From: a virus
DNA length: 64,000 nucleotides
Direction: 5' to 3' (one strand)
Virus record (IMG/VR): IMGVR_UViG_3300022225_001767
The notes under the pieces are model-generated. The model saw only the letters and a program-made list of their open reading frames with translations, was not told where the DNA came from and searched no databases. Every line of letters begins with the position of its first letter. Positions within the stretch are counted from its first letter, which is position 1. Shown piece by piece: positions 5,523 through 36,927 of the stretch. Made by a program: the position numbers and the translations under genes.

Positions 5523-5552
5523 TTGACTATCAAATATAACTGTTCTATGATG
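5523..5552 (+). promoter_or_regulatory. sigma70 promoter of csrA
   Basis: TTGACT-17-TATGAT; the leader has two AAGGA sites and no GTCAACAC. Confidence 0.6.
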
Positions 5553-5581
5553 AAACTACATCAAGGATAAGGAATAAGATT

Positions 5582-5767: not shown

Positions 5768-5779
5768 GGTACTTTTTGG

Positions 5780-5823
5780 TTGAACCACCACTCTCCTTGT
5801 GTTATCATTAAAAGTGTCAACAC
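5780..5823 (+). promoter_or_regulatory. sigma70 promoter with GTCAACAC leader motif
   Basis: TTGAAC-17-TATCAT-7-GTCAACAC(5816-5823), AAGGAG, ATG 5835. Confidence 0.7.
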
Positions 5824-5834
5824 AAGGAGTAATT

Positions 5835-6371: not shown

Positions 6372-6432
6372 CAACTAATTTAGGATATTCGGAATAACGT
6401 GTGGAAATTAGATATACGGTAAGGGTGAATTC

Positions 6433-7704
6433 ATGAACGTACAAGACAAAATCAAATTCACATCTGAACTCGCAAACCCTGAAGGTTTTTGCATTTCACT
6501 GCGAGAAACCAATGCAAATAAGCATTTTGGTTACGCTTTAGAGGACGTGATTTTGAATGAGACGCCTCTTGCAAAAGTGCACTACGCTGATTTGTTTACA
6601 TATATGCACAGAAGGTTCGGACTGCCGAATATGCCAGGTAATCCGTACAAAGATTTGTCCGCACCTTGGTTTTTAACCACACCACATGATGACGTTTTCT
6701 TAAAAGTTTCGCCAAGCGTTAGTGGTGTTGGATACTGCTTTAATCCTTACATTCTTGTTGAAGATGAATTTCTAAGCAGGGACAAAATTGATGAAAGCAA
6801 TATCCCTGAATATATCGCGGCTTATAAAGATACGCTGAATGATTTGCTCAGACCCGTTTGCGTTCGTGATAGTTATATCAATGCTTTGGGTAAGCTGGAT
6901 TATGACAGCCCATACATGGAATATATAGAAGAGTCCGACGAACATGAAGGCGGTCATGTTTACGTTGTTAAACATGCTGAATCTTCGGGTTGTTGCGACC
7001 CGTTTAGATTATTTGGAAGCGATGATTATTTTGATCTAAACATCATTTTTGATGCATTGGGTGCTGGTGATGCCAAAACAGGTATAAAGCAAGGAGTTAA
7101 AGCCTTACAAGAGAAAATCATAATACGTATTTCAGCCGAGAGTGAAGATGTGGTTGTAACCATATTGGCGTGGCTACTTTTCTTATCTGATGAGAAAGCA
7201 ACACTTGTAGCAAGTCAGATCTTAGGTCTATTCGACAAAAAAACTTCAGAAGCGTTGCACAATAAGGCGACGTTGCTTGCAGAATCTCTAAAAGGAGGGT
7301 CGGAGTTCGACTTTTATCGTTTACGAGAAGAATCAGTAACCAAAGCTGCTAGGTTGCTATCAATAATTGGTTTTGAAAACAACCTCAAGGACACGCTTGA
7401 AAATGCGCATCAAAACCAGCGCTACAAACATTATTCAGCTGAATTGAACTTGATTCTTGGCAATTTGGAAGATTCAGAAGAAAACCAAAAAATCATTCCT
7501 ACAGTTGATGAAGATGACATGTTTTTCCAGAACGTCAATAAAGATTGGTTGGCAGCACTTGACCCAACTAACCATGCTGCTCTTATTGATTGGTATAATA
7601 AAGTAGCTAGCACTCCTAATGGTGTTGAGTATGTACTGCACATTCTTCTGGATTGGCATGAAAGAAACAAAAAAGGCGTGTGCAACGATGCTGTGATATC
7701 GTGA
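6433..7704 (+). CDS. Hypothetical protein
   Basis: 423-aa ORF, no motif recognised. Confidence 0.75.
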   Translation: MNVQDKIKFTSELANPEGFCISLRETNANKHFGYALEDVILNETPLAKVHYADLFTYMHRRFGLPNMPGNPYKDLSAPWFLTTPHDDVFLKVSPSVSGVGYCFNPYILVEDEFLSRDKIDESNIPEYIAAYKDTLNDLLRPVCVRDSYINALGKLDYDSPYMEYIEESDEHEGGHVYVVKHAESSGCCDPFRLFGSDDYFDLNIIFDALGAGDAKTGIKQGVKALQEKIIIRISAESEDVVVTILAWLLFLSDEKATLVASQILGLFDKKTSEALHNKATLLAESLKGGSEFDFYRLREESVTKAARLLSIIGFENNLKDTLENAHQNQRYKHYSAELNLILGNLEDSEENQKIIPTVDEDDMFFQNVNKDWLAALDPTNHAALIDWYNKVASTPNGVEYVLHILLDWHERNKKGVCNDAVIS

Positions 7705-7738
7705 TTCCACACACTATTCCGAATACCCCTAATTTATT

Positions 7739-7987
7739 TTGGAGAAAAAAGTGAACAGGACCACTCCCAGTTTTTTCGACTTTCTTTTAGATGTCGGTAT
7801 CAGCGCACGCATCCGATACATTGATGCCGCTACACTGACGGTCGGCTTTTTGTGTGCATGGGGAGCGATCCAGTTTGACGCTAGCCCGCTTCTTGTTGCC
7901 GCGTCATTTGTCGTCCCTTACGTGACAACGTGGCTCTCACTATTCACCTACTTTAGCCTTCATTGGCGCCGCACGTTTGCGTCGTAG
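7739..7987 (+). CDS. Small membrane protein
   Basis: 82 aa, two hydrophobic segments. Confidence 0.45.
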   Translation: MEKKVNRTTPSFFDFLLDVGISARIRYIDAATLTVGFLCAWGAIQFDASPLLVAASFVVPYVTTWLSLFTYFSLHWRRTFAS

Positions 7988-8474
7988 CGTCATCATCATT
8001 ACTTAACAAGTCATCTAGCACCATAAGGGCACCTGCTCTCAGCAAATCAAGCTCCCTTACACGTTGCGCAATCTGGTCGGCCAGGACTTCAATCATGAGT
8101 GTTGTTAGAGCGTCTTCACGTGAAGGCAGCGCACACCCCTTAACCTCAAGCACATCGACCGGGGTAATTCCGTCTTGCTCTCGCTGCCAAACTACGGAAA
8201 TGGTCTCTTCGTCAAACTCTCGTAATCCTGCCACCTGCTCAAAGTAAAAAAACAAGCCGCCAGCACACACGCCTTTTGAAATCATCACATTACTCTCTTC
8301 AGAACCAGGTATAACCCCCATACTAGACGGCATTCCAATAGGTAGCGTTTTAACAGTATGCTTCAGTCGGCTTTCAAAATCGCCGTCGCTTCGGTAGCAA
8401 AGCGACACCTCTGATAATGTATTGCACTCGATACCATCGACGGTAAGTGTGCTTCTATGCGAGTTACTTTCCAT
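7953..8474 (-). CDS. Hypothetical protein
   Basis: 173-aa ORF with RBS. Confidence 0.65.
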   Translation of the reverse strand: MESNSHRSTLTVDGIECNTLSEVSLCYRSDGDFESRLKHTVKTLPIGMPSSMGVIPGSEESNVMISKGVCAGGLFFYFEQVAGLREFDEETISVVWQREQDGITPVDVLEVKGCALPSREDALTTLMIEVLADQIAQRVRELDLLRAGALMVLDDLLSNDDDATTQTCGANEG

Positions 8475-8600
8475 ATATATATCCCTATTTTGCCCTTGCC
8501 AGAAAGTTATGCTATATTTATTCCAATTGTGGCAGATGCGCCCAATGAAATAAGGAGCCTGACGCTTGTTTTACAGTGGGTTGAAATTTAACCTTTGTTG

Positions 8601-8750
8601 TGTAAAATAAGCTGACATGTTGTTTTGTGATGCATTTATGCTGAATAAATTTACAGTTAAATCACCTTGAATAAGCTTCCTTATAGGGGGAGTTTTAAAT
8701 GTAAGCCGATGATGACATTATACTTTTGTCGTAACTGGCCTACACCTTGC
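8601..8750 (+). promoter_or_regulatory. Putative sigma54 promoter with upstream TGT-N11-ACA site
   Basis: TGTAAAATAAGCTGACA (8601-8617) and TGGCCTACACCTTGC (8736-8750; GG-N10-GC). Confidence 0.5.
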
Positions 8751-8809
8751 GATAGTGGACATTGCATAAAATATGCGTTTTTATTCACTCAAATCGGAAG
8801 GTATTTACA

Positions 8810-8998
8810 ATGAAAAAGGTAGCTCTTTTTGCTGTAGCAACAGCATTCGCTCTAGGGACATCAAGCGCAATGGCTAAACCAGTTGACGCAGAAGAACAAA
8901 AATTAGACAACGTTAGCCCAGTGGAAACCGTGGTTTTACTGAAATCAACACCACCGACAAAACCAAAAACTGGTAATGGTGGCACAGTGGTCTTCTAA
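8810..8998 (+). CDS. Small secreted protein (62 aa)
   Basis: GGAAGG RBS, signal peptide MKKVALFAVATAFALGTSSAMA, followed by a terminator. Confidence 0.7.
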   Translation: MKKVALFAVATAFALGTSSAMAKPVDAEEQKLDNVSPVETVVLLKSTPPTKPKTGNGGTVVF

Positions 8999-9012
8999 GC
9001 CACCTCACACAA

Positions 9013-9040
9013 AAAAAAGCCTGTCATGACAGGCTTTTTT
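9013..9040. terminator. Bidirectional intrinsic terminator
   Basis: AAAAAAGCCTGTC-AT-GACAGGCTTTTTT. Confidence 0.85.
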
Positions 9041-9059
9041 GTTTTATGCTAAATGCAAA

Positions 9060-10838
9060 TTACTTCTTTCTACGCCATACGCAGGCGCCCGCTAGCAACA
9101 CAGCCATCCACCCCATGCTACCACCGCCAGAGCTTCCACCGGCATTGCCGGCATTGCCGCCATTGTTGCCGCCGCCATTATTACCACCATCATTTCCACC
9201 ACCGCTATTATCCGTGGTGTCATTGATGTTGATGACCACTTCATCCACATCTACATTAATATTGTCATTAACAATACGTAGCGTAAAGCTTTCATCATCT
9301 TCCGTAGCGTCTGTCATTGTCGCAATCGCAATGCGCTTTGACGTTTCGCCAGGCTCGAAATTCACTGTGGTGTCTATTGCAGTGTAATCCTCTCCCGCTA
9401 CTGCGGTTCCATTAAATGACTTCACATTCACGGCCACAGCACCATCGCTACCGTTTTCACGAATGATGTCTACAAACGACGAGCTGCCCTCATTAACGGT
9501 TTTGCTCGCTTGCGAGAAAGAGAAAGTACCAGCATTACCTACATCATCCGACCCGATCGTGTAAGTTACAGACTTCACATCATTGTTAATCTCTACCCCG
9601 TTCGGGTTCATAACACGCAACACAAGCGTCTCACTCACTTCAAACTCGTCGTCATTAACAAGCTCAATGGAAAAAGTCGTTCGGCCTGTGCCATCATAAG
9701 TTAAAGGGATAATACCATCACCAACAATATCGTCTTTACTGATGGTGCTTGCATCATAGTCCACCACCAATTCAAAAGAACCGTGTGGCACGCCGTCTTG
9801 ACTTGCGTTAGCGGCATCGAATCGAGACCACAGTACGCTACCAGTCAATGCACCTGTACTTTCGTCCACAAATGCGCTGCCGACATCGATAGTGGCCAAG
9901 CCGTTAATATCGTTCATATCAACAATATTTCTCAACGCCCAACTAAAATCGGTTGGCGTCTCCGCGCGTTTTTCTTCAATTTTTGCAACGCCTTCTCGAT
10001 AGGCTGCGGCAGCATCTGCAACTTGCAACTCACCACAGGCTTCTCCAGTGTCTATGTCAGAGTGTGCAGGATCTGAAAAGAAGTGCTCGTCGGTATAGCT
10101 AAAACCGCGACTATCCATAATGGAATAGTTTGTGTCGCAGCGATCGCCTACAGCATAGGTCGCCAACATATAAGGCGTTGTTGTATCAGACTCTCGATTG
10201 TGTCGAAGACCATCATTGTGACCTAACTCGTGAGCCATGATGGTCACAGAGTGTTGTGTATTTTCATAAGGCGTCACTACCGCAGAATCACCACCTAGCG
10301 TGGCCTTCCCGACAAACGCATTAACATCATCAGTGTCGCGTTTAGCAATCATTACATAATAAGATGCGCCATATTGACCAAACGCGTTACTCATTGCCGC
10401 ACTGCCAGGCTCACCAGATGCGATTTCTGTAAAATAGCGAACAACAGATGACTCTGTCGTGTATAGCTCCGCGTCAACAAAATCATCTGAAATTGGCAGT
10501 ACGCCGACTGATGTTCGCGATAGGCCGATGCCTCCGCGTGCCAGTGTTTCATTATTGACGGCGATACTTTCGTCAATGAAGTTGTATAGCGCAATAGGAT
10601 CGCCATCAAAATAATCACGAAGCACGGCCTCAGAATAGAAAAACAGTATACCCGTCTCCGTTACCGTTGAGGGTGCTGGGTAATCGTAAAATGCCACTTG
10701 AGTAGGTTGTTTATTCTGTGATTCACCTACAAGCACTTTAGGTTCAAAGTATGAACTTGTAGCATGGACAGAACCTGCCGCAGTCGCAAACAAGCCCGCG
10801 ATAATCGCTGATGTTATTTTCTTTTGGTGTTGACGCAT
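9060..10838 (-). CDS. Secreted metzincin (reprolysin/M12B-like) protease with Calx-beta domain(s) and GlyGly-CTERM anchor
   Basis: Signal peptide; HELGHNDGLRH zinc motif plus Met-turn (YSIM); NGTAVAGEDY...TVNFEPGETSK Calx-beta; C-terminal GGGSMGWMAVLLAGACVWRRKK. Confidence 0.85.
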   Translation of the reverse strand: MRQHQKKITSAIIAGLFATAAGSVHATSSYFEPKVLVGESQNKQPTQVAFYDYPAPSTVTETGILFFYSEAVLRDYFDGDPIALYNFIDESIAVNNETLARGGIGLSRTSVGVLPISDDFVDAELYTTESSVVRYFTEIASGEPGSAAMSNAFGQYGASYYVMIAKRDTDDVNAFVGKATLGGDSAVVTPYENTQHSVTIMAHELGHNDGLRHNRESDTTTPYMLATYAVGDRCDTNYSIMDSRGFSYTDEHFFSDPAHSDIDTGEACGELQVADAAAAYREGVAKIEEKRAETPTDFSWALRNIVDMNDINGLATIDVGSAFVDESTGALTGSVLWSRFDAANASQDGVPHGSFELVVDYDASTISKDDIVGDGIIPLTYDGTGRTTFSIELVNDDEFEVSETLVLRVMNPNGVEINNDVKSVTYTIGSDDVGNAGTFSFSQASKTVNEGSSSFVDIIRENGSDGAVAVNVKSFNGTAVAGEDYTAIDTTVNFEPGETSKRIAIATMTDATEDDESFTLRIVNDNINVDVDEVVININDTTDNSGGGNDGGNNGGGNNGGNAGNAGGSSGGGSMGWMAVLLAGACVWRRKK

Positions 10839-14355: not shown

Positions 14356-17300
14356 TGCACACCCCCTTGTGCCACACTGACATCATTTAGTTTAAACGTG
14401 TTGCGGATCACACATGCTGCATTATCTTTTTTCTCCCATAATGCAGCACGAGCATCCAACGCCTCAAGCATCGCTTCTCTTGTGCCATCATTTTGATGCT
14501 TAGCCCAGCACATAAGCGTATTTAAGAACGCACCTTCGTTAAGCGCATCTTTCACATACGACACGGCACTTCGTTGCATGTCGGCCATTTTTTCGTGCAT
14601 CATTAGCGCGTGGTTGTTTACCGTTAGACGCGCCAGAGGGTTCTCCTCAAAATACTTCACCGCATCACGGTCGAGTAGCTTATACCAACCTTCAGGAGAA
14701 GAAAAATAGTCCATAAAGTGTGTCATTGCACCGTGGTATAGTAGCCAGTCACGAGGCACATTGATGTGGTCAAAATGCTTAAGCTCACCTTTCACGGCAT
14801 CCAGCATCACGAAGTAATTAGTGATTTCCTTAAAGCCTTCAATGTGATTGTTGTACAAACGCGTCAACTGCTGGCATACACCGTCAGAAAGATCTGACCA
14901 ATACTGATTGTAACGCTCTTTAAGCGCACGTCGCATTTCGTTGCGTGGTGCTCTTACGTTATCAAGTAAATATCTCGCTTTGTAGCTTCGATACGCTTTC
15001 ATATCCATCACGTCATCAATAGCAAGACCGATAGTGGCTTTTATTTCAGGTCGATATGTGCTCAGTTTAATCGGAATTCCAGCAGCACCGTCAAGCGCCA
15101 TTTGACGTAGCATGTCATCATCCAACATATACAGCCCCATCGACGCAAAATATTCCGTGCGCTTGATGATCCTTGCAGCATGACGCTTACTGTCTTGTGT
15201 TAGGTCAAAAATACCAAATCGCATCATCTGTTCAAAGGCGCGGGTACCGCTGTACTGATAAATACTTTCGCCTCGGCTTTCGCGGCGTTCCACAGTCTCG
15301 TCGTGTAACTGTAGCGCGCGCTCTATCCCATCCACCTCCATCCAATCTGCGGTACGAATATGGTCAAGCTGGTATCCACCCGTTACCGTTGACTCGAAGT
15401 AGTCCATTGTCCAATGTTGATAATTCAACTCAGGAACATATACAGGCACTGACTGCGTCACAGCCTCTTTATAAAGTGGAACCGGAGAACGCTCTTTAAA
15501 AGAGTATGTATTAAGGCTGGTGCGACCACGCTCGGTGATACGCATAACTCCACCTTTACGGCTCACTTTCTTCTTGGCACGGCGTGATGCCTGTATTTTC
15601 CTTTCCACATTTCGAGGTGATGACAAAAAGCGCTCAACCCCTTCAATGGCTGAAATAAAGTTAATATCCAGCGTTTCAGATGGGCGAAGGTGCGCATACT
15701 TTTCTCTGTCTTTAGGACTAAGAAAGTAATTGGCGTCACGCATTGGCATACGTGAGCTCATTGGCACTGGCTGCCACTCACAGTTTTCTGCTTTTTCATT
15801 GCCTAGGGTTAAAGGCATTGTGGCTGTTGGTCGCTGTGACACCGCGCCCGCCGTTGGCACCACCATAATGGCATCAGGGATATCATCAACCGTCGCACCT
15901 ACCGGGTCAACATCAGGGTAAGGGATGCGTTCACCGTTATATGTTTTGTCCCACACCGCCATCGCACGGTAGTGAGGCAGACGAACACCATCACGTGAGT
16001 GTATAAGGCTTAAAAACAACGAAATATCGGCTGACATCGGTTTTATCAAGTGACGCTGCGCATATTGCTTGTATACCGCTGCAAACTCTTCGCGATCTTC
16101 TTCACTGAGCAAAGGATCATTAATAATGTCGGCATAACCTTCATCGTCCATTTCTCGCCCATCAGCCACTAGCTGCTTAAAGCGTTCTGCACGGATGCGG
16201 TCGTCGTGTGTCGCCTGGCAAAGCAACCAGATGATTTTATCAATCGTTTTGGCGTTTAATACATTTGGCTGTAATGCCACTGCACCTGTTGTTTCATCAA
16301 CCGCTCTTGCATGCCATGTACGATTATTAATATCTTGGGCAACGTGCATGATGTAGTTTCTAACTTTAAGAATGTTGCCGCTGATAGCACGGTGACGTTT
16401 TTGCATCGCTTGCGCTTCACCAGACTTATCGGTAATACTTTTTGCACACAGGTAGCAACCAGTTCGCGCACTACCGCCACAACCACCCGCTTTTTGAGAG
16501 TCGCCTTTTAGGCGTTTTGATGATGTTGGGCAAGTGCCATCTTTTGAGTCGCTGTAAATCATATGAAGCAAACGATGGTTCTTCGCAAATGATGGAATGG
16601 GGGCGTTGCCCGAGTAGCTGTCAACCAGTGGCTTAGTGCCGGCTCGACGTAGAATAATCCACACTTCATCTGTGGTCATGCTAACAATAGGCGCAAATAC
16701 ACGTTCGTTATTTTGGTCGCACTCCACCAAGTCATCTGCTGTTAGGGTATCTTGCCCACGTTTTTTCAAAGAGGCGGCACGTTTAGCAGACTCTTCTGAG
16801 CGAGAACCAAGCAGGGTAACAACACGGTTACCATAATCTTTTGCCACTTGACGCTCAATGATCTCAGCATTGTCCACTTTCATGATTTGACTACAGTCAT
16901 TGTTAACGCGTGCCGTAGAGATTATTTTAAGACCACTAAGGAAAAGAGACGCCCACTGCTTAGCAAGAGGAGGTAGACCCACTCGCATATCGATGTTAAG
17001 CCCTTGCTTTTTACCAAAAGCGACAAGGCGATCTCGTTCATAAAGCGACAAAATTTGAACCAAGTGATTCTCTACGCCGGTATCAATGTTCGTGAACACT
17101 AAAGGGTGGTCCGCAGGCACTTTCCCTTCTTCAATGAGTTCTCTTAGCGCCTGAATAGCTGCCAGCATAACAACGGTACTGTCTTTACCAAAACTCGTCG
17201 CACACACGCACACATAGGATGTCATGATGACCTTAATGCTGTCTACGGCCTCTCTGAATAGCGCATAAGCTCTATTTTCAGCCGCAGCCGCCTCGACGCG

Positions 17301-17369
17301 ACCTGATGTTGCAGAACCTAAATCTATTCCCGCGATAAGATCTTGTGGTCGAATTGTGTTTACTGACAT
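14349..17369 (-). CDS. DndC-like PAPS-reductase-family Fe-S protein with long C-terminal extension
   Basis: PP-loop SFGKDS, CSQIMK, LLGSRSEESAKR, APIVSMTTDEVW, CP...CGGSARTGCYLC...DKS; total length 1006 aa. Confidence 0.82.
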   Translation of the reverse strand: MSVNTIRPQDLIAGIDLGSATSGRVEAAAAENRAYALFREAVDSIKVIMTSYVCVCATSFGKDSTVVMLAAIQALRELIEEGKVPADHPLVFTNIDTGVENHLVQILSLYERDRLVAFGKKQGLNIDMRVGLPPLAKQWASLFLSGLKIISTARVNNDCSQIMKVDNAEIIERQVAKDYGNRVVTLLGSRSEESAKRAASLKKRGQDTLTADDLVECDQNNERVFAPIVSMTTDEVWIILRRAGTKPLVDSYSGNAPIPSFAKNHRLLHMIYSDSKDGTCPTSSKRLKGDSQKAGGCGGSARTGCYLCAKSITDKSGEAQAMQKRHRAISGNILKVRNYIMHVAQDINNRTWHARAVDETTGAVALQPNVLNAKTIDKIIWLLCQATHDDRIRAERFKQLVADGREMDDEGYADIINDPLLSEEDREEFAAVYKQYAQRHLIKPMSADISLFLSLIHSRDGVRLPHYRAMAVWDKTYNGERIPYPDVDPVGATVDDIPDAIMVVPTAGAVSQRPTATMPLTLGNEKAENCEWQPVPMSSRMPMRDANYFLSPKDREKYAHLRPSETLDINFISAIEGVERFLSSPRNVERKIQASRRAKKKVSRKGGVMRITERGRTSLNTYSFKERSPVPLYKEAVTQSVPVYVPELNYQHWTMDYFESTVTGGYQLDHIRTADWMEVDGIERALQLHDETVERRESRGESIYQYSGTRAFEQMMRFGIFDLTQDSKRHAARIIKRTEYFASMGLYMLDDDMLRQMALDGAAGIPIKLSTYRPEIKATIGLAIDDVMDMKAYRSYKARYLLDNVRAPRNEMRRALKERYNQYWSDLSDGVCQQLTRLYNNHIEGFKEITNYFVMLDAVKGELKHFDHINVPRDWLLYHGAMTHFMDYFSSPEGWYKLLDRDAVKYFEENPLARLTVNNHALMMHEKMADMQRSAVSYVKDALNEGAFLNTLMCWAKHQNDGTREAMLEALDARAALWEKKDNAACVIRNTFKLNDVSVAQGGVQW

Positions 17370-17382
17370 GGGTATTCCTAGC

Positions 17383-17431
17383 GTGTTGACGTATTAAGCA
17401 TATCATAACAAACGTTGACCCTAGAGTCAAC
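17383..17431 (-). promoter_or_regulatory. sigma70 promoter with GTCAACAC motif and GTTGAC-N6-GTCAAC palindrome
   Basis: TTGACT-17-TATGAT-11-GTCAACAC(17390-17383); palindrome 17414-17431 over the -35. Confidence 0.75.
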
Positions 17432-17492
17432 GCCTGTATTCCATTCTATTGATGTTATCGACATCACGCCAAAGTGAACGACGGGTTTAGAG

Positions 17493-17792
17493 CTAGGCTG
17501 AACAGAGTGCGTTTTCTTTCGCAAAAGCAATAGCCTCTTTCGAATGGTAGATGATCAGCGAATGAACACCTGCCTGCAAAGGCCCGTCGCTTCCCACCTC
17601 CCACTCACGCGCGCTGGCACTTGCGGTTAGTCTGGTTACAGCCTCTTTTCGTTCACTATCAGGGAACAGCACAACCGTATAATCATGCTCACTTTTCCCA
17701 ATAATACTCATAACGGGCATGGTCAATCCGGGGCACCGTAATTCCATGGCATTGACCACGCCTCGGGACAAGTCGGATAATGCAATCGCCAT
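17493..17792 (-). CDS. Hypothetical protein
   Basis: 99 aa, starts 3 nt after the dndB-like stop. Confidence 0.6.
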   Translation of the reverse strand: MAIALSDLSRGVVNAMELRCPGLTMPVMSIIGKSEHDYTVVLFPDSERKEAVTRLTASASAREWEVGSDGPLQAGVHSLIIYHSKEAIAFAKENALCSA

Positions 17793-17795
17793 AGC

Positions 17796-19013
17796 TTAGC
17801 CCTCCTTCGCTTCTTGCTTCCACTGCTCACGGAACATCTTCACTTCACGCTCGATGTCATCAAGCTCCGGTGGCGCAGGAATGTTCATTTCTTTTAACAG
17901 ATAAGACGCGACCGCTTTATGGTTCCAAGGACGGTCTTCGTAACCACCACGGAAGTTCTTACAACGCCCCACCCACTCTTTGTTGTTATGAGTAAGGTCG
18001 ATAGTCGACCACTTGTCTAAAAGCCCCCAGTCTGCTTTACCGGGACCTTTCGCCTCCAAGTTCATCTTCACAACCTTGGCAACAATGGCCAGCGACTTGA
18101 AGAATGTGGCGGTACCAATGACCGTCTTCTCTCTTACATCAGGCGCTGACATGTCTTTGTTCATTGCGCGACCAAAGGTAGGATTTCGGCATAGTTCAGA
18201 AAAGAACTTGCTTGTAAACCCTGCGATATAAGCACGATCCTCTGGCTTTTCCAATAGGTTCTGAGCGGTGGCTTTCGTGGTGCCCGTCAGCTTCAGGATG
18301 AATGCCCCTATTTGATTGAGTGTCCATAAATACGGCGACTCTGAGCTTGATGTAACGGATGCCTTTGTGTAGCTCACATTGCCCATGAGGGGGTATTGCT
18401 GAGATAGTTCTCGGCTAAACACAGACACTACCTTTCGCGAATCCATGGCCGCTTTTTGGCTCTGATTAAAGGCCTTCGAGCTTGTGTTGATGTCCACGCA
18501 GATTTGGTTGTCTTTTGTGGCACCCATTGAGCGAATAAACTTAACGTCAAAGTGCTGTTCCGACAAATCAATGCCATCAAATTTCGATTGCATTAAGATT
18601 TCAATGCCACCACGTCGACCTTGCCCATCTACTAAATAGCGAAAGCTTTCAGCAGGTATTGTTAGGGCATACACATTCCCGACGACCGGCGTTAATGTGA
18701 AATCCTCTACAATAGCCATCAGTCCCGGAAAAATAAACACGGCGGTATTATCTTTCACATAATTTGCCACGCCATTTGCGCGTGAATGGTCTAAGTCTCG
18801 CTGGATCATGATGTGAGACGGCATATCAATATCCTGAGGCACCCGAGGGAATCCCTCAATCAAGGTGTCCATTGGCACCTTACCCACATAAGTAAGTCGC
18901 TCCCCTTCACGCCCTTCTGTGACGTAGAAAGTTAAATCTTTCTTTACACGAAGCGCATTGTAAAGCGCATTCAGTTTTTCGTTATCTTCGAATGTAAGTT
19001 GTACTGGTAGCAT
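17796..19013 (-). CDS. DndB-like (DGQHR-family) protein
   Basis: IQRDLDHSRANGVANYV...FPGL...YLVDGQGRRGGIE...DINTSSK...LWTLNQI matches the DndB layout; DGQHR reads DGQGR. Confidence 0.82.
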   Translation of the reverse strand: MLPVQLTFEDNEKLNALYNALRVKKDLTFYVTEGREGERLTYVGKVPMDTLIEGFPRVPQDIDMPSHIMIQRDLDHSRANGVANYVKDNTAVFIFPGLMAIVEDFTLTPVVGNVYALTIPAESFRYLVDGQGRRGGIEILMQSKFDGIDLSEQHFDVKFIRSMGATKDNQICVDINTSSKAFNQSQKAAMDSRKVVSVFSRELSQQYPLMGNVSYTKASVTSSSESPYLWTLNQIGAFILKLTGTTKATAQNLLEKPEDRAYIAGFTSKFFSELCRNPTFGRAMNKDMSAPDVREKTVIGTATFFKSLAIVAKVVKMNLEAKGPGKADWGLLDKWSTIDLTHNNKEWVGRCKNFRGGYEDRPWNHKAVASYLLKEMNIPAPPELDDIEREVKMFREQWKQEAKEG

Positions 19014-19032
19014 AAGTGCCTCTAAACTGGTT

Positions 19033-19081
19033 GTGTTGACTGCATAATCAACAATCTACCTGAGAGTGTTGCCATTGTCAA
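19033..19081 (-). promoter_or_regulatory. sigma70 promoter with GTCAACAC leader motif
   Basis: TTGACA-17-TAGATT-12-GTCAACAC(19040-19033); imperfect palindrome GTTGAC-N6-ATCAAC at 19035-19052. Confidence 0.7.
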
Positions 19082-19139
19082 TGTTTTTATTAATCTAAGT
19101 TTCGGTTAAGGCCTGCAACGCACGCAGGCCTCATAGAGG

Positions 19140-19850
19140 TTAATCTAATAGCGTTGGTAGATAGCTATCTTTGAGAGCCTTGATGCTTTCATTGCTTCCA
19201 TTAATCCACAAATCTGCACTCGTTTTACCTTGACGCATCTTGTCGATGACTTTTCTCGATGCGGTATCAGAACCATCTGCATCTAAAAGGCGGAGATATA
19301 CGCTCCATTCCTCAAAATTATTGACTCTTTGGGCCACTTCAGAAAAAGGGATGCAAAGCAATGTCAGGTAATGTCCCAGGCCTTCATCTTCGTCATCATA
19401 TTCGGGTTCATCAGAGTAAGCAATGAATCCGCCTAGGTTTTCGGACATCGCCTGTAAGGCGAGGGCCTCTTCTTTGTGTAACGCCAGCGCTTGCGGTTTT
19501 TGTGGCAAAAACGCATAGCCTTCTTCATAGTACACTTCATGCGCCAACGCAATAAACTTCTTGTTGTCGATCAATACACTATAACCTGTCATTACGTTAA
19601 GCTTATCACTTGCCGTACCGATAAGGACATTATCCTCTGCAATGTAAGAGGATTCCTCTTCACTTAAAGGATAAAAGACATAATGACCGTCTTCAATTGT
19701 ATTTGAAAAATCGAGATTGTTGGCTTCCATATAATACTGACTGACGTTTTCAGCATTTTCACAGCAGCTGCTAGTAAGATACACCACCTGCTTTAACGGC
19801 AATCGCCCTCCAGGTTTAATGTCAAAAGGCAACACGTTTGCTGTCTTCAT
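19140..19850 (-). CDS. Hypothetical acidic protein
   Basis: 236-aa ORF. Confidence 0.7.
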   Translation of the reverse strand: MKTANVLPFDIKPGGRLPLKQVVYLTSSCCENAENVSQYYMEANNLDFSNTIEDGHYVFYPLSEEESSYIAEDNVLIGTASDKLNVMTGYSVLIDNKKFIALAHEVYYEEGYAFLPQKPQALALHKEEALALQAMSENLGGFIAYSDEPEYDDEDEGLGHYLTLLCIPFSEVAQRVNNFEEWSVYLRLLDADGSDTASRKVIDKMRQGKTSADLWINGSNESIKALKDSYLPTLLD

Positions 19851-19863
19851 GTGGCCTACACGA

Positions 19864-19884
19864 GTGTTGACCTCATGAATATTA
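19864..19884 (-). promoter_or_regulatory. -10 box plus GTCAACAC motif (no clear -35)
   Basis: TAATAT-7-GTCAACAC(19871-19864); TnpB-associated hairpin lies about 20 nt upstream. Confidence 0.55.
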
Positions 19885-19905
19885 TTAAACCGCTCAAATT
19901 AATGC

Positions 19906-20041
19906 GTTCAAACCTGATCATCAGTTTTGAACCAACGCTTTCGCGCCTGACGTGAGCAGCTACGCCAGTGAAACACACTGCAATTTATGTTCGTTCACCG
20001 TGAGAATAACCGGTGGACCGGTTTTCTCGGGCTGTTTGAAC
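19906..20041 (-). ncRNA. Candidate omegaRNA/right-end structure of the TnpB element
   Basis: Hairpin GTTCAAAC-CTGA-TCA-TCAG-TTTTGAAC (19906-19932) and hairpin GAGAAT-AACCGG-TGGA-CCGGTT-TTCTC (20002-20028) overlapping the ORF 3' end. Confidence 0.5.
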
Positions 20042-21621
20042 AAAGCAGTGTGTTTCTTCACAATTGCTTTCACTTTCCCCCAACGTTGCAGCGGGCCGCC
20101 GTCAATACTCACGGTCTTTGAGCGGGCACTGCAAAGTTGTGTACCAACATTATGTGGCACGGAAAAACGAATGCGATCATGTTTGAGTCCCAGCGTCCGG
20201 CGCGCAATGACTTGCGCGGCGGCCTGATGGGTCGTATTTTGGGTGGAATGGTATTTAAACATTCCGATAATCGATGTCATGGCCGGGTTGACGGCTTTGC
20301 AGGGTAAGCCCTCGCGGTAGCACCGGCGTTCAATCAGCGACAGCGCCATATCGTACGCAAAGGCGGACAGCATCGCTCTGTGATGCTTATTTGCGGTTTC
20401 CTTCATGGCTTGCTTCTTCCTGCTGAAGTCTAGTTTTTCAATCCCGACGCCGACATGGTGTTGCTTGGCAACCTCCACGACACGTTTCACGGCATCGCCG
20501 ATCATCGCCATGCGTTGCCCAGTTGTCAGTCCTTTGGCGGATGCCGGGCAGGGGATATCTTCGACATGTTTTTTGTTACCATCCTGAGTGACGACGCACA
20601 CGGCTAGGTGGTCAGCATTAACATCGACGCCTAAGCAGCCATTTTCGTAGCTTCCTGCTATCTCTTCAGGGGCCGGCTCTTCGACGGTCATCGCCAGTGT
20701 CCAGCCGAATTTATGGCGCATGAAGCGCATGGTTAAGGGTTGACCATACGAAGACAACACTTCATTTTTGGTTTGCGGACGCAACTCACCGGTTTTCCGA
20801 TCTTTCACCCAAGGTGACGAACGGGTCAGCGCTTTCACGTTAGCTGCCCGACGACGCTCATTCTCCGCACAGGCCGCTAATATATTGGACTTTCCGTAGT
20901 TAAAATCGAAACCTGACAGCTCAACTTTACCGCCACCCAGAGCATCTGGTAGGCGCAAAGACAACCTGAACTCACCGTCGTTATCAACGTACAGTTGCGC
21001 GCCCTGATTGCCGCAGGTTTCATCCTTCGAGCCCAGCACCATGAACTGTGATGAACGGGAGCTTTGCCACTCGTCAAGCCATTCAGCATGGTTGTTCAGG
21101 TTATTTTCTTTGAGAAAAAATTGCTTGTTAAACAACTTTTTCGATCCAAAACACATGGCGGGGATCTTGCCGATGTTATCCGCAATTTTCTCAATTTGAG
21201 TAGATAGCCGGGCCCGATACCGGGGTTTTTGGTGCGCTTTGAAACGGACTTTTTGAATTTCAGACGGTACGCCGCCTGTTTTTGACAGCATATTCGCTTG
21301 GTCACGAAGCCGCTCAATGGTTTTTGAGACCGCTTCGATACGCTCTTTTTTATCAACCTGATAAAGCTTATCTAGTTCGCGTTTTGAATCCAGCTTGCCG
21401 GTTAACGTGCGCAGCACCGCATTATATTGCCTAGCGCTGATCTGATATGTGCTGATAAAGTGACGTTTTCGCTCATTGGCCGTCATTTTATCCGCGCAAA
21501 GGCTTGCGTAAAGCTTGCGTTCCACACGCCCGAACAACGCCGCATACGCAGAAAGTGAACTCTCTGTTTCGGCATCAATATCGGCTGACTTGATCAGCGT
21601 GGTGTATGTGGACGTCTGCAT
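19960..21621 (-). mobile_element. tnpB: Solo TnpB-related RuvC protein (IS200/IS605 or IS607 accessory type), no TnpA adjacent
   Basis: RuvC-I GVDVNADH, RuvC-II IEKLDF, VNPAMTS...HQAAAQVIARR; no zinc finger; sequence appears GC-richer than its flanks. Confidence 0.78.
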
Positions 21622-21865
21622 AGTTCAGACTATACACCACAACGTTTTTGATGTGAACGTCTACCGTATAATTTCGCAGAAAAAACCGCCATCAATGTCA
21701 TCACATCACGGCACAGTGTCTGTTCAAAAGTGGTTTCATCGTCGCCATCAAGACGATATCGCCGGTGACCACCGAGCGTCTACGAAAAGATTACCAAAAG
21801 TTCACATTAAAGTTAATTTTTTTTGTTGATTTCTCACACCTACAGTGTCTTATTTTATATTTTTG

Positions 21866-21908
21866 TTGACCGCACCGTCACCACTTGATATTCTGTACAC
21901 GTCAACAC
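21866..21908 (+). promoter_or_regulatory. sigma70 promoter with GTCAACAC leader motif
   Basis: TTGACC-17-TATTCT-6-GTCAACAC(21901-21908), GAGGA, ATG 21924. Confidence 0.75.
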
Positions 21909-21923
21909 GATGAGGATAACAGC

Positions 21924-23345
21924 ATGTACTTCGGCAACAACGTTAGCTACCACAACTTAGGCAAAAAAGACGGTAATCGCCGCATCTGGCTTGAAGGAAT
22001 GGCCTTGCTTCGTGCCGGATTTGCGCCTGGCTCATTTTATGAGGTGTCGCTTGACCCTAGCACTCTTAACGTAGACATGCGCCTCGTTGAAGACAACGAA
22101 GAGAATCGTAAACGTTACGCCAATAAAGAGCTAAGAAAAGTGTCTCGCCGTCAAATGAGCGGGTGGGTAAAACCTATCGTTGACGTATGTAATGCCAGCA
22201 TTACAGCATTATTTGGAGAGCACAGTCGATTTCGTGCATTAAGCTCACCTGGTCTGGTTTCATTTGGCATTCACCCTGACGATTTAAAGAAAGCGCAGCG
22301 CGAAGCACGCCTGATGAAACACCTTAAAGAAAATCGCGTAACGAAAGGTGATGCATTCCTAGGATTTGGCATTTCTCGCCACAGCAACACCGAGGGATTT
22401 CTTCAAGAAGGGGTTAAAACCGAGCAAAAGTGGGCCATTGAAATGGAAGCGCGCTATTTGGATATCGCCACATTGAACGATCCTGCTGCTTATAATGGGA
22501 CGACGCTGTTTTGCGGTACCGTAGAAGAAGTTGAAAAGACGTTACTTGACCCTGTAGATGTGTTTTCATTCTCTATAGCATGCACCAATCACTCCGCACA
22601 AGGCAAAGCAAAAAAACAGATTAAAACCGCTGAGCAAGCGGATGAAGTCACCTCTTTATTCGGCGTAGTATCCATCATTGAGGCTACCAATCCCGCTATA
22701 CTGATCAGCGAAAATGTACCTGATGCGCAGCACTCCGCTACGTATGAACTACTACGAAAAGAGCTTAAGCGTCGAGGCTACCTGTTTAAAGAATACCAAC
22801 TTGCCCAAGCGCAAAGTGGTGCCATTGATATGCGAAAGCGTTACTGGATGGTCGCGTACAGCGAAGGTCTCGCTGTCGACCCCGACGAATTGGTTCCTAT
22901 GGACACGCCACGTATCCATAATACACTTGGTGACATTATGGAACCGGCTGACGATTCAGCGTGGTTTGACAAAGCGCCACTGCTTAAGCGTGACCAACTC
23001 AACAAAGAAAATGGCCGTAACTTTTCGGTGTATTGGGTGGACGAAAATACTGAAAACATGCGCTCTATACTTCGCAATTACACGAAGCATCAGACGTCGC
23101 AACCTCACATTGAAGGCGCACCGAGCGACAAAGAAGGAAAAGGGTATTACCGCCGCTTATCAAAGAGCGAGCATGCGAAAAGCAAGCGTATTCCATCACA
23201 CTTAGCAGATCACTGCTCTGAAACAGTGGCACATGAAGGAATGGGTCAATCCATTGTTTATTTTCATGGTGTTAATGTGGCCAGAATGATGATTCGAAGT
23301 GTCAAGCACGCCATGAACGCGCAGATATCTATGGCATTTAGTTAA
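21924..23345 (+). CDS. C5 cytosine DNA methyltransferase (IncC Dcm-like), atypical motif IV
   Basis: N-terminal GNRRIWLEG domain; FLGFG, IACT (PC reads AC), ENVP, RKRYW, GQS. Confidence 0.8.
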   Translation: MYFGNNVSYHNLGKKDGNRRIWLEGMALLRAGFAPGSFYEVSLDPSTLNVDMRLVEDNEENRKRYANKELRKVSRRQMSGWVKPIVDVCNASITALFGEHSRFRALSSPGLVSFGIHPDDLKKAQREARLMKHLKENRVTKGDAFLGFGISRHSNTEGFLQEGVKTEQKWAIEMEARYLDIATLNDPAAYNGTTLFCGTVEEVEKTLLDPVDVFSFSIACTNHSAQGKAKKQIKTAEQADEVTSLFGVVSIIEATNPAILISENVPDAQHSATYELLRKELKRRGYLFKEYQLAQAQSGAIDMRKRYWMVAYSEGLAVDPDELVPMDTPRIHNTLGDIMEPADDSAWFDKAPLLKRDQLNKENGRNFSVYWVDENTENMRSILRNYTKHQTSQPHIEGAPSDKEGKGYYRRLSKSEHAKSKRIPSHLADHCSETVAHEGMGQSIVYFHGVNVARMMIRSVKHAMNAQISMAFS

Positions 23346-23359
23346 CAAAGAGGTGCACC

Positions 23360-23653
23360 ATGAGATTTATCCTTGCAGGCTTTTTCATTACTTCGCTACT
23401 TTCGCCATCGTTGGTGTCCAGTGAGGCAATTAAACCTATCTCTACTGCATCATTAACCAACATTAAGAAAGAAAGACGCTGTGGGGGGCATGTTGCACAA
23501 AACAAGCTGTTGTGCCTCCATCGTCACGGCAAGCTGGATGCCGTCATCGCACCCACTGATAAAGGCAAACGAGCAATGGTGCTCTATAAAACGGCAACAG
23601 TGCATCTACTTCATGGGGCGTCACTGCCTTCGCCTTATCACGACGACAAATAA
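23360..23653 (+). CDS. Secreted hypothetical protein
   Basis: GAGG RBS, signal-peptide-like N-terminus. Confidence 0.55.
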   Translation: MRFILAGFFITSLLSPSLVSSEAIKPISTASLTNIKKERRCGGHVAQNKLLCLHRHGKLDAVIAPTDKGKRAMVLYKTATVHLLHGASLPSPYHDDK

Positions 23654-23656
23654 ATG

Positions 23657-23700
23657 TTGTTTTTATAGGTTAAGTCTGAGATAATAATTCCCGTCAACAC
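23657..23700 (+). promoter_or_regulatory. sigma70 promoter with GTCAACAC leader motif
   Basis: TTGTTT-17-GATAAT-7-GTCAACAC(23693-23700). Confidence 0.7.
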
Positions 23701-23710
23701 AACTTGGGGA

Positions 23711-24901
23711 ATGATTATGAATATGCTTTCACATCGGCCGATGAACCGTCACCTTGAATTTTTCGCAGGCCATGGCGGTACAGGGTTTGGTCTTTCAGGA
23801 AACTGGCAAACCATTTGGGCCAATGATATCGATCCTGTTAAGGCTGAAGCGTTCTCGTTAAATCACCGTGTAAGCATGCTGTGCAAGTCTATCAGCGACG
23901 TTAGCGCAAACGACATCCCTGATGGCGATCTCATGTCAGCGACGTTTCCATGCACTAACACATCCGCTGCTGGCGATAGAACTGGATTGCTTGGCATCAA
24001 GTCTGGTGTGGTTTATCAGTGGCTGCAACGTCTCACTGAGCGAGGTGGTGCGGCACACTACCCAATGGCAATGCTTGAGAATCCAATGGGGCTCGTGTCT
24101 CGAAATCAGGGCAATGATCTTGCTGATCTTATTCAACGTTTAAATGCACTAGGGTACGCGGTAAACCTTTCTGTCGTTGACGGCAAACATTTTGTCCCAC
24201 AATCTCGACCGCGCATTTTCATTAGTGCTATCGCACATGATGCCGCAGAGAATGTGTACAATCGCATAACAAGCGCGTCTCTACCCTTACATAACAAAGA
24301 ATTGTACCCTAACCCTTTACAGAACTGGATGGCACGTTTCGCTAATGCGCTTTTGCTCGTTGCACCAAGCGACACACCATCGCTTCCTGAACGTCACCTA
24401 CAGTTGGTTGACTGTCTCTCGTTGGATGATAAAAATGATGGCTCGTGGGCGAGTGAAGAAGAAACCAAGAACATCATAGACAACCTTGTTGGGCCTCATC
24501 TGGAGCGCTTTAATAAGATGCTCTGTAGCCCTCATACCATGGTTGCCACTATTGCAAGGCGAGGACGCCAAAAAGCAGATGGGACGCGATTTAACGCGGC
24601 GGAAATTTCTCTCAGTGGGTTATGCCCCGCGCTTCGTCCTTACAAAGGTGGTTCGAGTCGCACATGGGTGCTTGTGGCAGGTCAAGGCCAGTATGCTGTT
24701 AAAGTTATCACGCCTCGTGAAACCGCGAGAATAATGGGGTACCCTGACAGTTACCAATTACCTAAAGATAAAAAAGCCGCCTATCAGTGCACGGGTGATT
24801 CGGTAGTGCCTCAGGCTGTGGCATGGGTTGACGCCAATATACTGCAACCTGTCATCAAGGCGCATTGCAGTCATGGTGATCAGCTTGGCATGCCATTATA
24901 A
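23711..24901 (+). CDS. C5 cytosine DNA methyltransferase
   Basis: FFAGHGG, TFPC, ENP, QSRPRIF, TGDSV. Confidence 0.9.
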   Translation: MIMNMLSHRPMNRHLEFFAGHGGTGFGLSGNWQTIWANDIDPVKAEAFSLNHRVSMLCKSISDVSANDIPDGDLMSATFPCTNTSAAGDRTGLLGIKSGVVYQWLQRLTERGGAAHYPMAMLENPMGLVSRNQGNDLADLIQRLNALGYAVNLSVVDGKHFVPQSRPRIFISAIAHDAAENVYNRITSASLPLHNKELYPNPLQNWMARFANALLLVAPSDTPSLPERHLQLVDCLSLDDKNDGSWASEEETKNIIDNLVGPHLERFNKMLCSPHTMVATIARRGRQKADGTRFNAAEISLSGLCPALRPYKGGSSRTWVLVAGQGQYAVKVITPRETARIMGYPDSYQLPKDKKAAYQCTGDSVVPQAVAWVDANILQPVIKAHCSHGDQLGMPL

Positions 24902-24908
24902 CTTGGCC

Positions 24909-25547
24909 TTACCGGTAACTTTCAACATCGCGTTTTGCTATCATGCGAAACGCGGTTCTCCCCCATAAGGAAAACCATCTTAAACTAATAAAAATGGACA
25001 GCGTTGATAATGCTATCAATGTAAGCCTAACATTACCCTCGTGAACTAAAACTTCATGTGATATAGCCCCCATGCCGCTCAACATATTGGTCGTACTCAA
25101 TAGAATCAACACAAATCTTCCTCTTGCTCTACGTGAAAGAGCAACACATCCTGAACGATATGATTTCTCAGAAAGCGTATTGTTTACCGTGTCCTCGTTG
25201 CCGCCTGTTGAACGGAATGCTTCAAGTACAGATACCCATCGATTCTTCATGGCACGCTCTCCTTTCGACCATCGAAAAGTGTCTGCTAAAGCGGGTGCAA
25301 TAAGTGCGGCGATCATCCAAGAGAAAGTATTGCCCAGGTCTGGCCATTGCGTTAATTCATGATCTAATAAATGAAGGGAAAGCATGGTCGCCGTCATGAT
25401 TAGTATCACGGACATGCCGACACATCTTCGCTCCAGAGACATTCGCTGGTGAAGACGGTTAACTAAACTTGACGGAGAAACTTCAAAGTGTGATTCGTAA
25501 TGTGTCATCGGGCTGTCATCCTTTACAGCATTTCTATGGAGCATCAT
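24909..25547 (-). CDS. Membrane hypothetical protein
   Basis: About four hydrophobic segments. Confidence 0.6.
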   Translation of the reverse strand: MMLHRNAVKDDSPMTHYESHFEVSPSSLVNRLHQRMSLERRCVGMSVILIMTATMLSLHLLDHELTQWPDLGNTFSWMIAALIAPALADTFRWSKGERAMKNRWVSVLEAFRSTGGNEDTVNNTLSEKSYRSGCVALSRRARGRFVLILLSTTNMLSGMGAISHEVLVHEGNVRLTLIALSTLSIFISLRWFSLWGRTAFRMIAKRDVESYR

Positions 25548-25612
25548 GCTCCTGTTATGCTAACAATATAAGCGTAGGTCTTTATACTACTGTTTGCAAT
25601 AGGTGTTCCAAT

Positions 25613-26971
25613 TTAGGCTGCTCTTGCTAGCGGATCAACCAAACTAAATCGTCGCTTATCACTATCACGACGTGACAAGGCTTTCATTGATTCTTGATAC
25701 GTGAAATCCGTTGCTTTTTTGCAGGTTTGTATATCTTTCACTTTCAACGGGGTTGTCAGCTTTAATTTATCTAACGTTTTTATGCGACTCAAGGTTACAT
25801 AAGACAGGCCGGCTTCGTTATAATTCCCACTCAGATCGATTTCAGCTTCATTTAAAGTCATGCCTTGGCTTTTATGCGCAGTGATGGCGTAGCCTAACCT
25901 AACAGGTAATTGCTTAAAGGTTCCTACGGCTTGTTTGGCTAATCCATCGCCATTCGTATTGTATGCAAAATTCTCCCACGTATGGGGAGTAACATGCACC
26001 ACACCACCCCTATCCAACCTAACGTTAATTCCTTTAGGTGTGACACCGACAAGGACACCCAAGTCGCCGTTCTGGAATCGGCGATCGGGGTCGTTCACCA
26101 TCAATAACAAGCGACAGCCACGCTTCAGCACAATGTTATCTTCAACCATTTTTAATTTATTCGGGAAACGCCCTTTTACTTTTCCATGCGCAGTGAAGGC
26201 AGGTGCTTTAACTTTAGCCATAGCACTCGCGTTAATCGCGGACACTTTCTTGTTTGTTTTACATATTTTCAAGGCATCTTCAGACACGAGCCCCAATGCG
26301 CGCGTATTGAAGAAACGAACCACTTTATCTAAATTGTGCCCCATTCTCAGAGACCGCATTACGCGTCGGGTCAGCGGATCGGATTGGCGCACGTATTCAT
26401 TTAGTACATAGGACGTAAAACCGCCCCTTGTATAGGACGATGACTCAAACAAATAGCGTCTATTTTCGTACTGTCGTTTAAACCATCCCTGTTGAGTATC
26501 GCCAGCCAGAACAGGCGGTAATTGGCAAAAATCACCAACTAAGATAACTTGCACACCACCGAAGTATCGACTATTTCCTTTAGCCGCCCGAAACCGTGCT
26601 TCCATTTGCTCAAAAAGATCTATGCGGACCATGCTATCTTCATCAATGAGAATGGCCTTACAGGCAGCCAACCTTTCTCTTGTTGCACGGTTCATGTTGC
26701 GCGCATCTTCAAGGTTTTTTACATCCTTCCCAAACCCCATAAAGCTGGCAAGTGTTTGGCCTTGAATAGGTATGCTGGCAATACCTGTGCTCGCCGTTAT
26801 AACCAGTTCAGGTAAGATTTTTGATAGGAAGTTAATCATGTGCGATTTGCCTACACCACCACCTCCCATGATCAACATGTTTTCACCCGTTAAAGCAGCA
26901 AGCGCGCAAATCTTTTGACCTTCATTTAAGGTCTTGAATTCAGGCAGTCTTTTTACTTCAAATGGCGTCAT
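25613..26971 (-). CDS. PIF1/RecD-like SF1B DNA helicase
   Basis: GGGGVGKS, DEDSM, GDFCQLPPV, VRQ, AITAHKSQGMTL, YVTLSR. Confidence 0.9.
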   Translation of the reverse strand: MTPFEVKRLPEFKTLNEGQKICALAALTGENMLIMGGGGVGKSHMINFLSKILPELVITASTGIASIPIQGQTLASFMGFGKDVKNLEDARNMNRATRERLAACKAILIDEDSMVRIDLFEQMEARFRAAKGNSRYFGGVQVILVGDFCQLPPVLAGDTQQGWFKRQYENRRYLFESSSYTRGGFTSYVLNEYVRQSDPLTRRVMRSLRMGHNLDKVVRFFNTRALGLVSEDALKICKTNKKVSAINASAMAKVKAPAFTAHGKVKGRFPNKLKMVEDNIVLKRGCRLLLMVNDPDRRFQNGDLGVLVGVTPKGINVRLDRGGVVHVTPHTWENFAYNTNGDGLAKQAVGTFKQLPVRLGYAITAHKSQGMTLNEAEIDLSGNYNEAGLSYVTLSRIKTLDKLKLTTPLKVKDIQTCKKATDFTYQESMKALSRRDSDKRRFSLVDPLARAA

Positions 26972-26985
26972 GGTGGTCTCTTGCT

Positions 26986-27028
26986 GTGTTGACCACACAA
27001 CTATACCAAAAAACGCGAGATTTTGAAA
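26986..27028 (-). promoter_or_regulatory. Promoter with GTCAACAC leader motif
   Basis: TTTCAA-17-TATAGT-6-GTCAACAC(26993-26986), ATG 26971. Confidence 0.65.
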
Positions 27029-36910: not shown

Positions 36911-36927
36911 AACAGGGTAAAACCACA

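Follow-up and report, generated by a model that had tools for sequence, protein, structure and literature searches.

TnpB proteins that carry a histidine (His) in place of the RuvC-III aspartate (Asp) and have lost the C4 zinc finger define the clade RIIIr-4, which is specifically represented in viruses and was judged by its authors to be probably active, based on the conservation of the His change (Altae-Tran et al., 2023, PNAS, PMC10691335). Here we describe a gene for such a protein on a DNA stretch of 64,000 nucleotides (nt) from a virus (IMG/VR virus record IMGVR_UViG_3300022225_001767), which we call the window and whose positions are counted from its first letter. An earlier sequence-only reading had regarded the gene as a solo tnpB and proposed either a non-autonomous insertion that cut a promoter or a domesticated RNA-guided DNA binder. 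We conclude that window 19890-21780 is very probably an immobilised copy of a multi-copy insertion sequence of the IS607 family from marine bacteria.

The window protein resembles RIIIr-4 in having His at the RuvC-III position and no C4 zinc finger, while the RuvC-I Asp and the RuvC-II glutamate (Glu) are kept. In contrast to the RHH/MazE-linked members highlighted in the description of that clade (PMC10691335), it is associated with a serine recombinase of the IS607 type and has no MazE-like neighbour. A TnpB with His for Asp and without zinc finger is the normal state of this catalogued clade and no evidence of domestication.

Other described systems are less similar. The ISDra2 TnpB belongs to an IS200/IS605 element with a Y1 transposase and possesses a D-E-D site and a zinc-finger/TNB module, whereas the window TnpB has about 12 residues in the place of this module and sequence similarity between both proteins is confined to the VNPAxTS region. 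If compared to the ~390 amino acid (aa) TnpBs of IS607 elements with RAGATH-18-derived RNAs (PMC11061315), the window TnpB is ~150 aa longer. TldR repressors (bioRxiv 10.1101/2023.11.30.569447) are, like the window protein, transposase-less TnpB relatives with a non-canonical RuvC-III residue that are encoded beside host genes. However, TldRs lost nuclease residues relative to their mobile relatives, whereas the residues of the window protein equal those of mobile copies; the guide of a TldR targets a conserved host promoter, whereas the guide candidate in the window is an insertion flank; and the window locus is conserved in one host lineage only. From type V CRISPR-Cas systems the locus differs in that no CRISPR array adjoins tnpB. 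The sequence-only reading had seen none either, and within 15-27 kb no repeat array occurs; the only tandem repeat in 15000-27000 is a 22-nt unit at 23567, present in 1.9 copies.

Results

Sister copies and assignment to IS607

The window protein belongs to a large family. In a library of clusters formed at 50% identity it matches 4,972 of them at E<=1e-3 and 1,687 at E<=1e-30, and at least 490 relatives were found in representative genomes from many phyla, often several per genome. Among the 60 loci obtained from a scan of metagenome contigs, ~25 are copies of the element at 82-96% protein identity, all of marine origin and with up to three copies on one contig. A Tara scaffold (L001) carries the element at 7385-9714, where a 184-aa tnpA (7447-8001) lies directly upstream of a tnpB (8001-9644) on the same strand, whose product is 86% identical to the window protein. 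The TnpA of this copy and that of a distant relative (L151) match PF00376 MerR (aa 10-46) and PF00239 Resolvase (aa 57-179) above the cut-offs. The 184-aa tnpA is intact in at least nine close copies, the remaining ones showing frameshifts or internal deletions. Since many copies carry an intact serine recombinase with a MerR-type helix-turn-helix and a resolvase domain directly upstream of tnpB and on its strand, which is the gene order of IS607, the element is of the IS607 type. Many copies together with a tnpA elsewhere had been named beforehand as the mark of an ordinary insertion sequence, and leaving cleavage aside this is what the ~25 copies, at least nine of them with intact tnpA, provide.

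The limits of the element were defined with the L001 element as query against the ~25 copies. Full copies share common limits, a left end that begins GGGTAATCGC and a right end that finishes TTTGAGCGG, with ~2,330 bp in between. The flanks are unrelated (~14 distinct left and ~20 distinct right flanks), and the base directly after the right end is C or T in every copy. GG is present at both ends and long terminal inverted repeats are lacking. A GG core is a trait of IS607, and the many unrelated sites and an RNA that overlaps the 3' end of tnpB are shared with that family as well.

The same organisation extends to more distant relatives. An upstream serine-recombinase match was obtained in more than half of 80 genome loci of the wider family, with the TnpA matches stopping 40-100 nt before tnpB. 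Multi-copy relatives in Thiomargarita, Dehalococcoidia, Chlamydiae, Verrucomicrobia, Azohydromonas and Parabeggiatoa end with ...[AG][AG]CGG, followed by divergent flanks that start with C or T, and the left ends of such distant lineages mostly read GGG... where fully captured.

Two further observations concern the sister copies. In the metagenome copies L083-L128, tnpA decays repeatedly and in various ways (frameshifts, internal deletions, 5' truncations) and tnpB stays open; the decayed copies still hold at least the last ~27-40 codons of tnpA, which is where the promoter-like site of tnpB is located. The distant relative on L151 (5378-5971; 41% TnpB identity, intact TnpA) lies ~1.9 kb from an IS200/IS605-type pair of a Y1 transposase and a canonical zinc-ribbon TnpB, thus both types of TnpB occur on one contig.

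The window copy and insertion-free alleles

Blastn against L001 7385-9714 aligned window 21745-19890 at 84%. The window copy has kept its right end intact, while most of tnpA and the entire left end were deleted. The sequence-only reading had seen no tnpA in the gap upstream of tnpB. Two pieces of this gene are nevertheless found there: tblastn with the L001 TnpA returned residues 148-184 at window 21743-21633 with 94.6% identity, and blastn returned a 44-nt piece at 21779-21736 that corresponds to L001 7561-7604. The left end has no match in the window and the full tnpA is gone as well, thus the copy is not autonomous and can no longer transpose. On this point, a non-autonomous insertion derived from a transposon, the earlier proposal stands. 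The motif GGTAATC at 21789-21795 was considered as a remnant of the left end and rejected, as it is host sequence that is also present in the insertion-free allele.

Three contigs (L143, L144, L145) represent the same host element without the insertion and align to window 22600-21781 and 19889-19000. In L143 both aligned stretches are separated by 375 bp of host DNA (5848-6222) that the window lacks. Homology to L143 ends at 21781 and resumes at 19889, and sequence internal to tnpA abuts host DNA at 21781/21780. The comparison with empty sites that had been recommended thus delivered both junctions. A 223-kb scaffold (L002), 98.7% identical over 4.5 kb, has the same junctions as the window, and this stranded arrangement was seen only in this one near-identical host lineage. 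Metatranscriptome contigs diverge from the window at 19889, 21780 and 21736/21744 and represent other copies with other flanks. A megablast search of 19000-22500 against plasmids and phages gave no near-identical DNA.

Despite the loss of its mobility, the window copy has an intact tnpB open reading frame (ORF), an intact promoter-like site within the tail of tnpA and an intact 3' RNA. The promoter-like stretch shows 0.94 pairwise identity among copies, the site itself being a match to the consensus only. The ratio of nonsynonymous to synonymous substitution rates (dN/dS) of the window tnpB is 0.19 against the L002 copy and 0.09-0.14 against other copies. If compared to L002 8001-9662, the window tnpB differs at 58 positions, which are clustered around codons 173-200, 240-261 and 311-327. 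Such clustering possibly reflects recombination with other copies and does not prove selection on the window copy.

The TnpB-like protein

The ORF of 553 aa that had been called TnpB-like is real. NCBIfam TIGR01766 'TnpB-related' matches its product with 35.5 bits (cut-off 32), while the NCBIfam model guided_TnpB matches residues 369-476 only, PADLOC gave nothing but partial Cas12f matches (aa 379-450) and a sequence search against the PDB returned similarity restricted to the VNPAxTS stretch. Pfam and PHROGs searches with the protein gave no match.

Translation and family alignments place the RuvC-I Asp at D333 (GVDVNADHLA) and the RuvC-II Glu at E395 (IEKLDF), while H465 (HQAAAQVIARR) occupies the usual position of the RuvC-III Asp. 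Between RuvC-II and RuvC-III (residues 395-465) neither a CxxC pair nor a conserved cysteine occurs in the translation or the alignments, and zinc-ribbon/TNB families of Pfam have no match in the protein. These features had been noted correctly from the letters alone. All three residues are invariant among 69 aligned relatives down to ~30% identity, clearly mobile copies included; the family-wide RuvC-III motif is HQAAAxVIARR, with the His fixed in 69 of 69 sequences. The D-E-H residues and the lack of a zinc finger hold without exception in at least 1,687 clusters of the family. Since the catalytic residues are equal in mobile sister copies, His465 is a trait of the subfamily and a loss of activity is unproven, exactly as the sequence-only reading had cautioned.

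The AlphaFold2 model, built from the 69 relatives, reached a predicted local distance difference test score (pLDDT) of 87 and a predicted template modelling score (pTM) of 0.78, the C-terminus being poorly modelled as well as poorly conserved among copies. Foldseek matched the model to Cas12k and Cas12f with E values of ~1e-9 over nearly the whole length. Employing VIA-align on model residues 1-481, the highest similarity was obtained with Cas12k (Z 15.2) and Cas12f (Z 14.9; root-mean-square deviation (rmsd) 3.8 over 324 residues), followed by the TnpB of the ISDra2 TnpB-omegaRNA complex (8exa, 8bf8; Z 14.1 against 8exa_A, rmsd 4.4 over 290/341 residues), while residues 326-480 alone resembled bacterial RuvC resolvases (Z 13-14; RuvC Z 14.1). 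The model thus displays the WED-REC-RuvC architecture that is shared by TnpB and Cas12 proteins, and as modelled the protein is of the TnpB type, missing the zinc-finger/TNB insertion between RuvC-II and RuvC-III.

The structured 3' RNA and its boundary

In the terminal ~430 nt of the element (~20320-19890), nucleotide identity among copies climbs to 0.9-1.0 from ~0.8, whereas the encoded C-terminus is poorly conserved. The last 240 nt fold with a minimum free energy of -94.8 kcal/mol (z -5.7), and in the closing helix CCGCU near 20093 pairs with AGCGG at 19890-19894, including a C-G to U-A covariation. A consensus fold of 41 pairs was obtained from four lineages (41-100% protein identity). 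Scored on the small alignment from which it was derived, it has 91% of cells paired, compared to 33-40% when the partners were slid, and double (compensatory) changes in 19 of its 41 pairs, compared to 2-8 after sliding; the observed values were not reached in any of 500 shuffles. A scan of 19600-22000 against Rfam at E<=1 gave no match, RAGATH-18 included, which is a further difference to the IS607 elements mentioned above.

A structured RNA overlapping the 3' end of the gene had been recognized before. Its overlap and its fold hold true, while its end is not GGTTTGAAC but lies 16 nt further. Homology among the ~25 copies breaks off sharply after ...GCATTAATTTGAGCGG at 19890, where the putative scaffold ends with ...GAGCGG. 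A drop of conservation is the standard criterion to read the boundary between scaffold and guide (PMC10278001), and by this criterion the boundary is placed at 19890, where the homology ends. As in ISDra2, the predicted guide-RNA scaffold comes from the 3' end of the gene. It is conserved and structured and stops at the end of the transposon, as far as sequence and predicted fold tell.

Consequently, 16 nt of the 20-nt guide proposed by the sequence-only reading are invariant sequence of the element and only four belong to the flank. This candidate guide, GCATTAATTTGAGCGGTTTA, was rejected: it has a single site in the window, and that site is inside the element. Any guide would instead be the flank starting TTTAATAATATTC, if the RNA reads through. 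Elsewhere in the 64-kb window this flank finds no match at <=3 mismatches. The insertion-free L143 matches its first 14 nt, and the insertion-free alleles differ from it at positions 15 and 18.

Contig depth at ~19900-20210 is 10-100x that of the rest of tnpB and of the host flanks in four marine metatranscriptome runs, each of which belongs to a different study. This peak is a weak hint of an abundant 3' RNA, or it represents a pile-up from all copies of the element. Stretches that are uncovered in single RNA runs (e.g., 21020-21928 in X4) are uninformative.

Host genes and promoters around the insertion

The gene that adjoins the right end is what is left of a host gene of 323 aa. Its homologue P0263 is 90% identical over the whole 236-aa query and is 323 aa long, and an uninterrupted gene of this length without known family is present in L143 (6001-6972), L144 and L145, while a search of viral contigs with the 236-aa neighbour gave no relatives. 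The 323-aa gene heads a module (DndB-like, 99 aa, 1006-aa DndC-like; together DndB/TusA/DndC-like) on a large plasmid-like element. The window lacks the start of this gene and 153 bp of DNA upstream of it. The native upstream promoter region of the module is probably gone, and its transcription may now come from the side of tnpB.

The sequence-only reading had placed a tagged promoter at 19864-19889 and let the insertion cut it. However, in the insertion-free alleles these positions belong to the reading frame of the 323-aa gene; the tag-like GTCAACAC reads GTCAATGA there, and a promoter scan of the insertion-free allele found no site at the matching position. What the element cut is the 323-aa gene itself, at about codon 74. 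The promoter of the divergent methylase gene was examined as a candidate for such an interruption and rejected: it is complete and located in host DNA outside of the element, and the same site is present in the insertion-free L143 at 5764-5736.

Some features of the surrounding host element are reported for completeness. The sequence ACGTCAACA occurs five times in the window (17384-17392, 21899-21907, 40958-40966, 47808-47816 and 51582-51590), a number that none of 100 shuffles reached, and at least four of the five sites are just upstream of an ORF start. The regions 868-7704, 21924-24901, 36868-38769 and 49191-50357 encode no fewer than five DNA methyltransferases along with two PcfJ-like proteins, a PIF1-type helicase and an SLT/LysM transglycosylase, a repertoire similar to that of the anti-restriction or leading region of a large conjugative plasmid. 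The coordinates of all features are compiled in Table 1.

Table 1. Features of the IS607-family remnant and of the adjacent host DNA in the window.
Feature	Position	Strand	Basis or remarks
IS607-family remnant, 1,891 bp of ~2,330 bp intact	19890..21780	-	blastn against L001, host homology to L143, ~25 copies
tnpB, 553 aa	19960..21621	-	ORF and translation; TIGR01766; D333/E395/H465, without zinc finger
Two fused tnpA fragments	21633..21779	-	codons 148-184 plus 44-nt piece from ~codon 39-53
tnpB promoter-like site TTCACA-17-TATAGT	21629..21657	-	promoter scan, 10/12 matches; directly before tnpB ATG, inside tnpA tail
OmegaRNA-like structured 3' region, ~205 nt	19890..20096	-	overlaps tnpB 3' end and stop codon, ends at right end
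Host flank 3' of right end, putative guide source TTTAATAATATTCATGAGGT	19870..19889	-	homology of copies ends at 19890; flanks differ at every site
236-aa ORF, 5'-truncated rest of 323-aa host gene	19140..19850	-	homologue P0263; L143/L144/L145
Promoter-like site of divergent cytosine-methylase gene (ATG 21924)	21866..21894	+	TTGACC-17-TATTCT, TG before -10

Discussion

The locus is in several ways an unusual tnpB locus if looked at in isolation, and an ordinary one if compared to its sister copies. The anatomy of the element, its copy number, the empty site, the fold of its protein and the covariation of its RNA are shown by these analyses, and the junctions yield a history of the window copy. 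The element inserted at a GG near codon 74 of the 323-aa host gene. Later, the left end was lost in a deletion that also took the first ~31 codons of tnpA and 375 bp of host DNA, among them the start of the gene and its upstream region, and a second deletion cut out the middle of tnpA.

RNA guidance, cleavage and a present-day activity of the window copy we infer from the analogy with characterised TnpB systems. In the most likely mechanism, processing of the 3' part of the tnpB transcript would yield an omegaRNA with a scaffold that ends at CGG, and the flank adjoining the right end would supply the guide. The complex of TnpB and omegaRNA would then recognise element-free insertion sites and cut them with the D-E-H site of the RuvC domain.

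Several points weigh against an IS607-family copy whose TnpB works in this manner. A site with His instead of the third carboxylate, in a protein without the zinc-finger/TNB module, could cleave DNA in an altered way or not at all, and the literature we searched contained no biochemical test of any RIIIr-4 TnpB. The window TnpB would fall into this clade by its defining features, and not by its position in a tree with reference sequences. A transposon-adjacent motif (TAM) did not emerge, as the left flanks of 14 independent insertions share only a purine before the GG. On the side of the RNA, the consensus fold comes from four lineages and was judged on its own alignment, and a covariance model of the 3' RNA (R1), run against 100 distant loci, gave four weak matches only (E 0.04-0.7) and did not reach relatives of 33-38% protein identity. 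The depth peak in the metatranscriptomes is confounded, as the last ~300 nt are 96-100% identical among copies and contigs of all of them pile up there. Furthermore, these data are assembled contigs, from which strand and ends cannot be read, and DNA may be present in RNA libraries.

Alternative explanations have to be considered as well. One might speculate that the stranded TnpB and its RNA were kept, as a weapon or drive of the plasmid or as a new promoter of the module, or more broadly that D-E-H enzymes of RIIIr-4 act unlike canonical TnpB, by nicking, in dependence on Mn or through binding only. We assign a rather small chance to this possibility.

A more specific version is a selfish drive or incompatibility weapon, in which the flank-guided TnpB would cut sibling plasmids that carry the uninterrupted 323-aa gene and thereby favour the interrupted allele. 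Suitable targets do exist, since the insertion-free L143, L144 and L145 agree with the flank over its first 14 nt and carry a GG directly before this stretch, and vacant donor sites are cut by TnpB of the IS605 type, as stated in a preprint (bioRxiv 10.1101/2023.11.20.567912). The retained ORF, promoter-like site and RNA would fit as well. However, the insertion-free alleles mismatch the guide at positions 15 and 18, and a recent event alone could explain the retention. Thus, we regard such a weapon as very unlikely.

Hardly credible is, in our view, the domesticated binder or repressor of the TldR kind that the sequence-only reading had put forward as one of two options, and that would regulate a host or plasmid gene such as the DndB/DndC-like module or the divergent methylase. 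An immobile copy with intact ORF, promoter-like site and RNA speaks for it, as do a dN/dS of 0.19 against the L002 sister copy, the place of the element in front of an operon, where it took over from the original upstream region, and the naturally nuclease-inactive Cas12k among the top fold matches. However, mobile sister copies possess the very same D333, E395 and H465 and do not differ in architecture, and nothing else in the 64-kb window matches the flank-derived guide. Only the L002 lineage (98.7%) shares the arrangement, while other host relatives carry the uninterrupted gene. The patchy differences between window and L002 may stem from recombination, which could yield a low ratio without selection, and the endpoints of the deletion look accidental, as the host gene was destroyed.

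Taken together, the main value of an immobilised IS607-family copy at this locus is a corrective one, as what looked like an orphan TnpB without nuclease activity belongs to a decayed copy from an active IS607 lineage, and its unusual active site is common to the whole clade. For the host element, the insertion and the deletion altered the expression context of the DndB/TusA/DndC-like module in the window. For RIIIr-4, the question is whether a RuvC domain with His as third residue and without TNB/zinc-finger module can cut DNA under the guidance of RNA. With its many copies, insertion-free alleles, covarying RNA, precise boundary and presence in RNA libraries, this lineage is a handy starting point for the first biochemistry of the clade.

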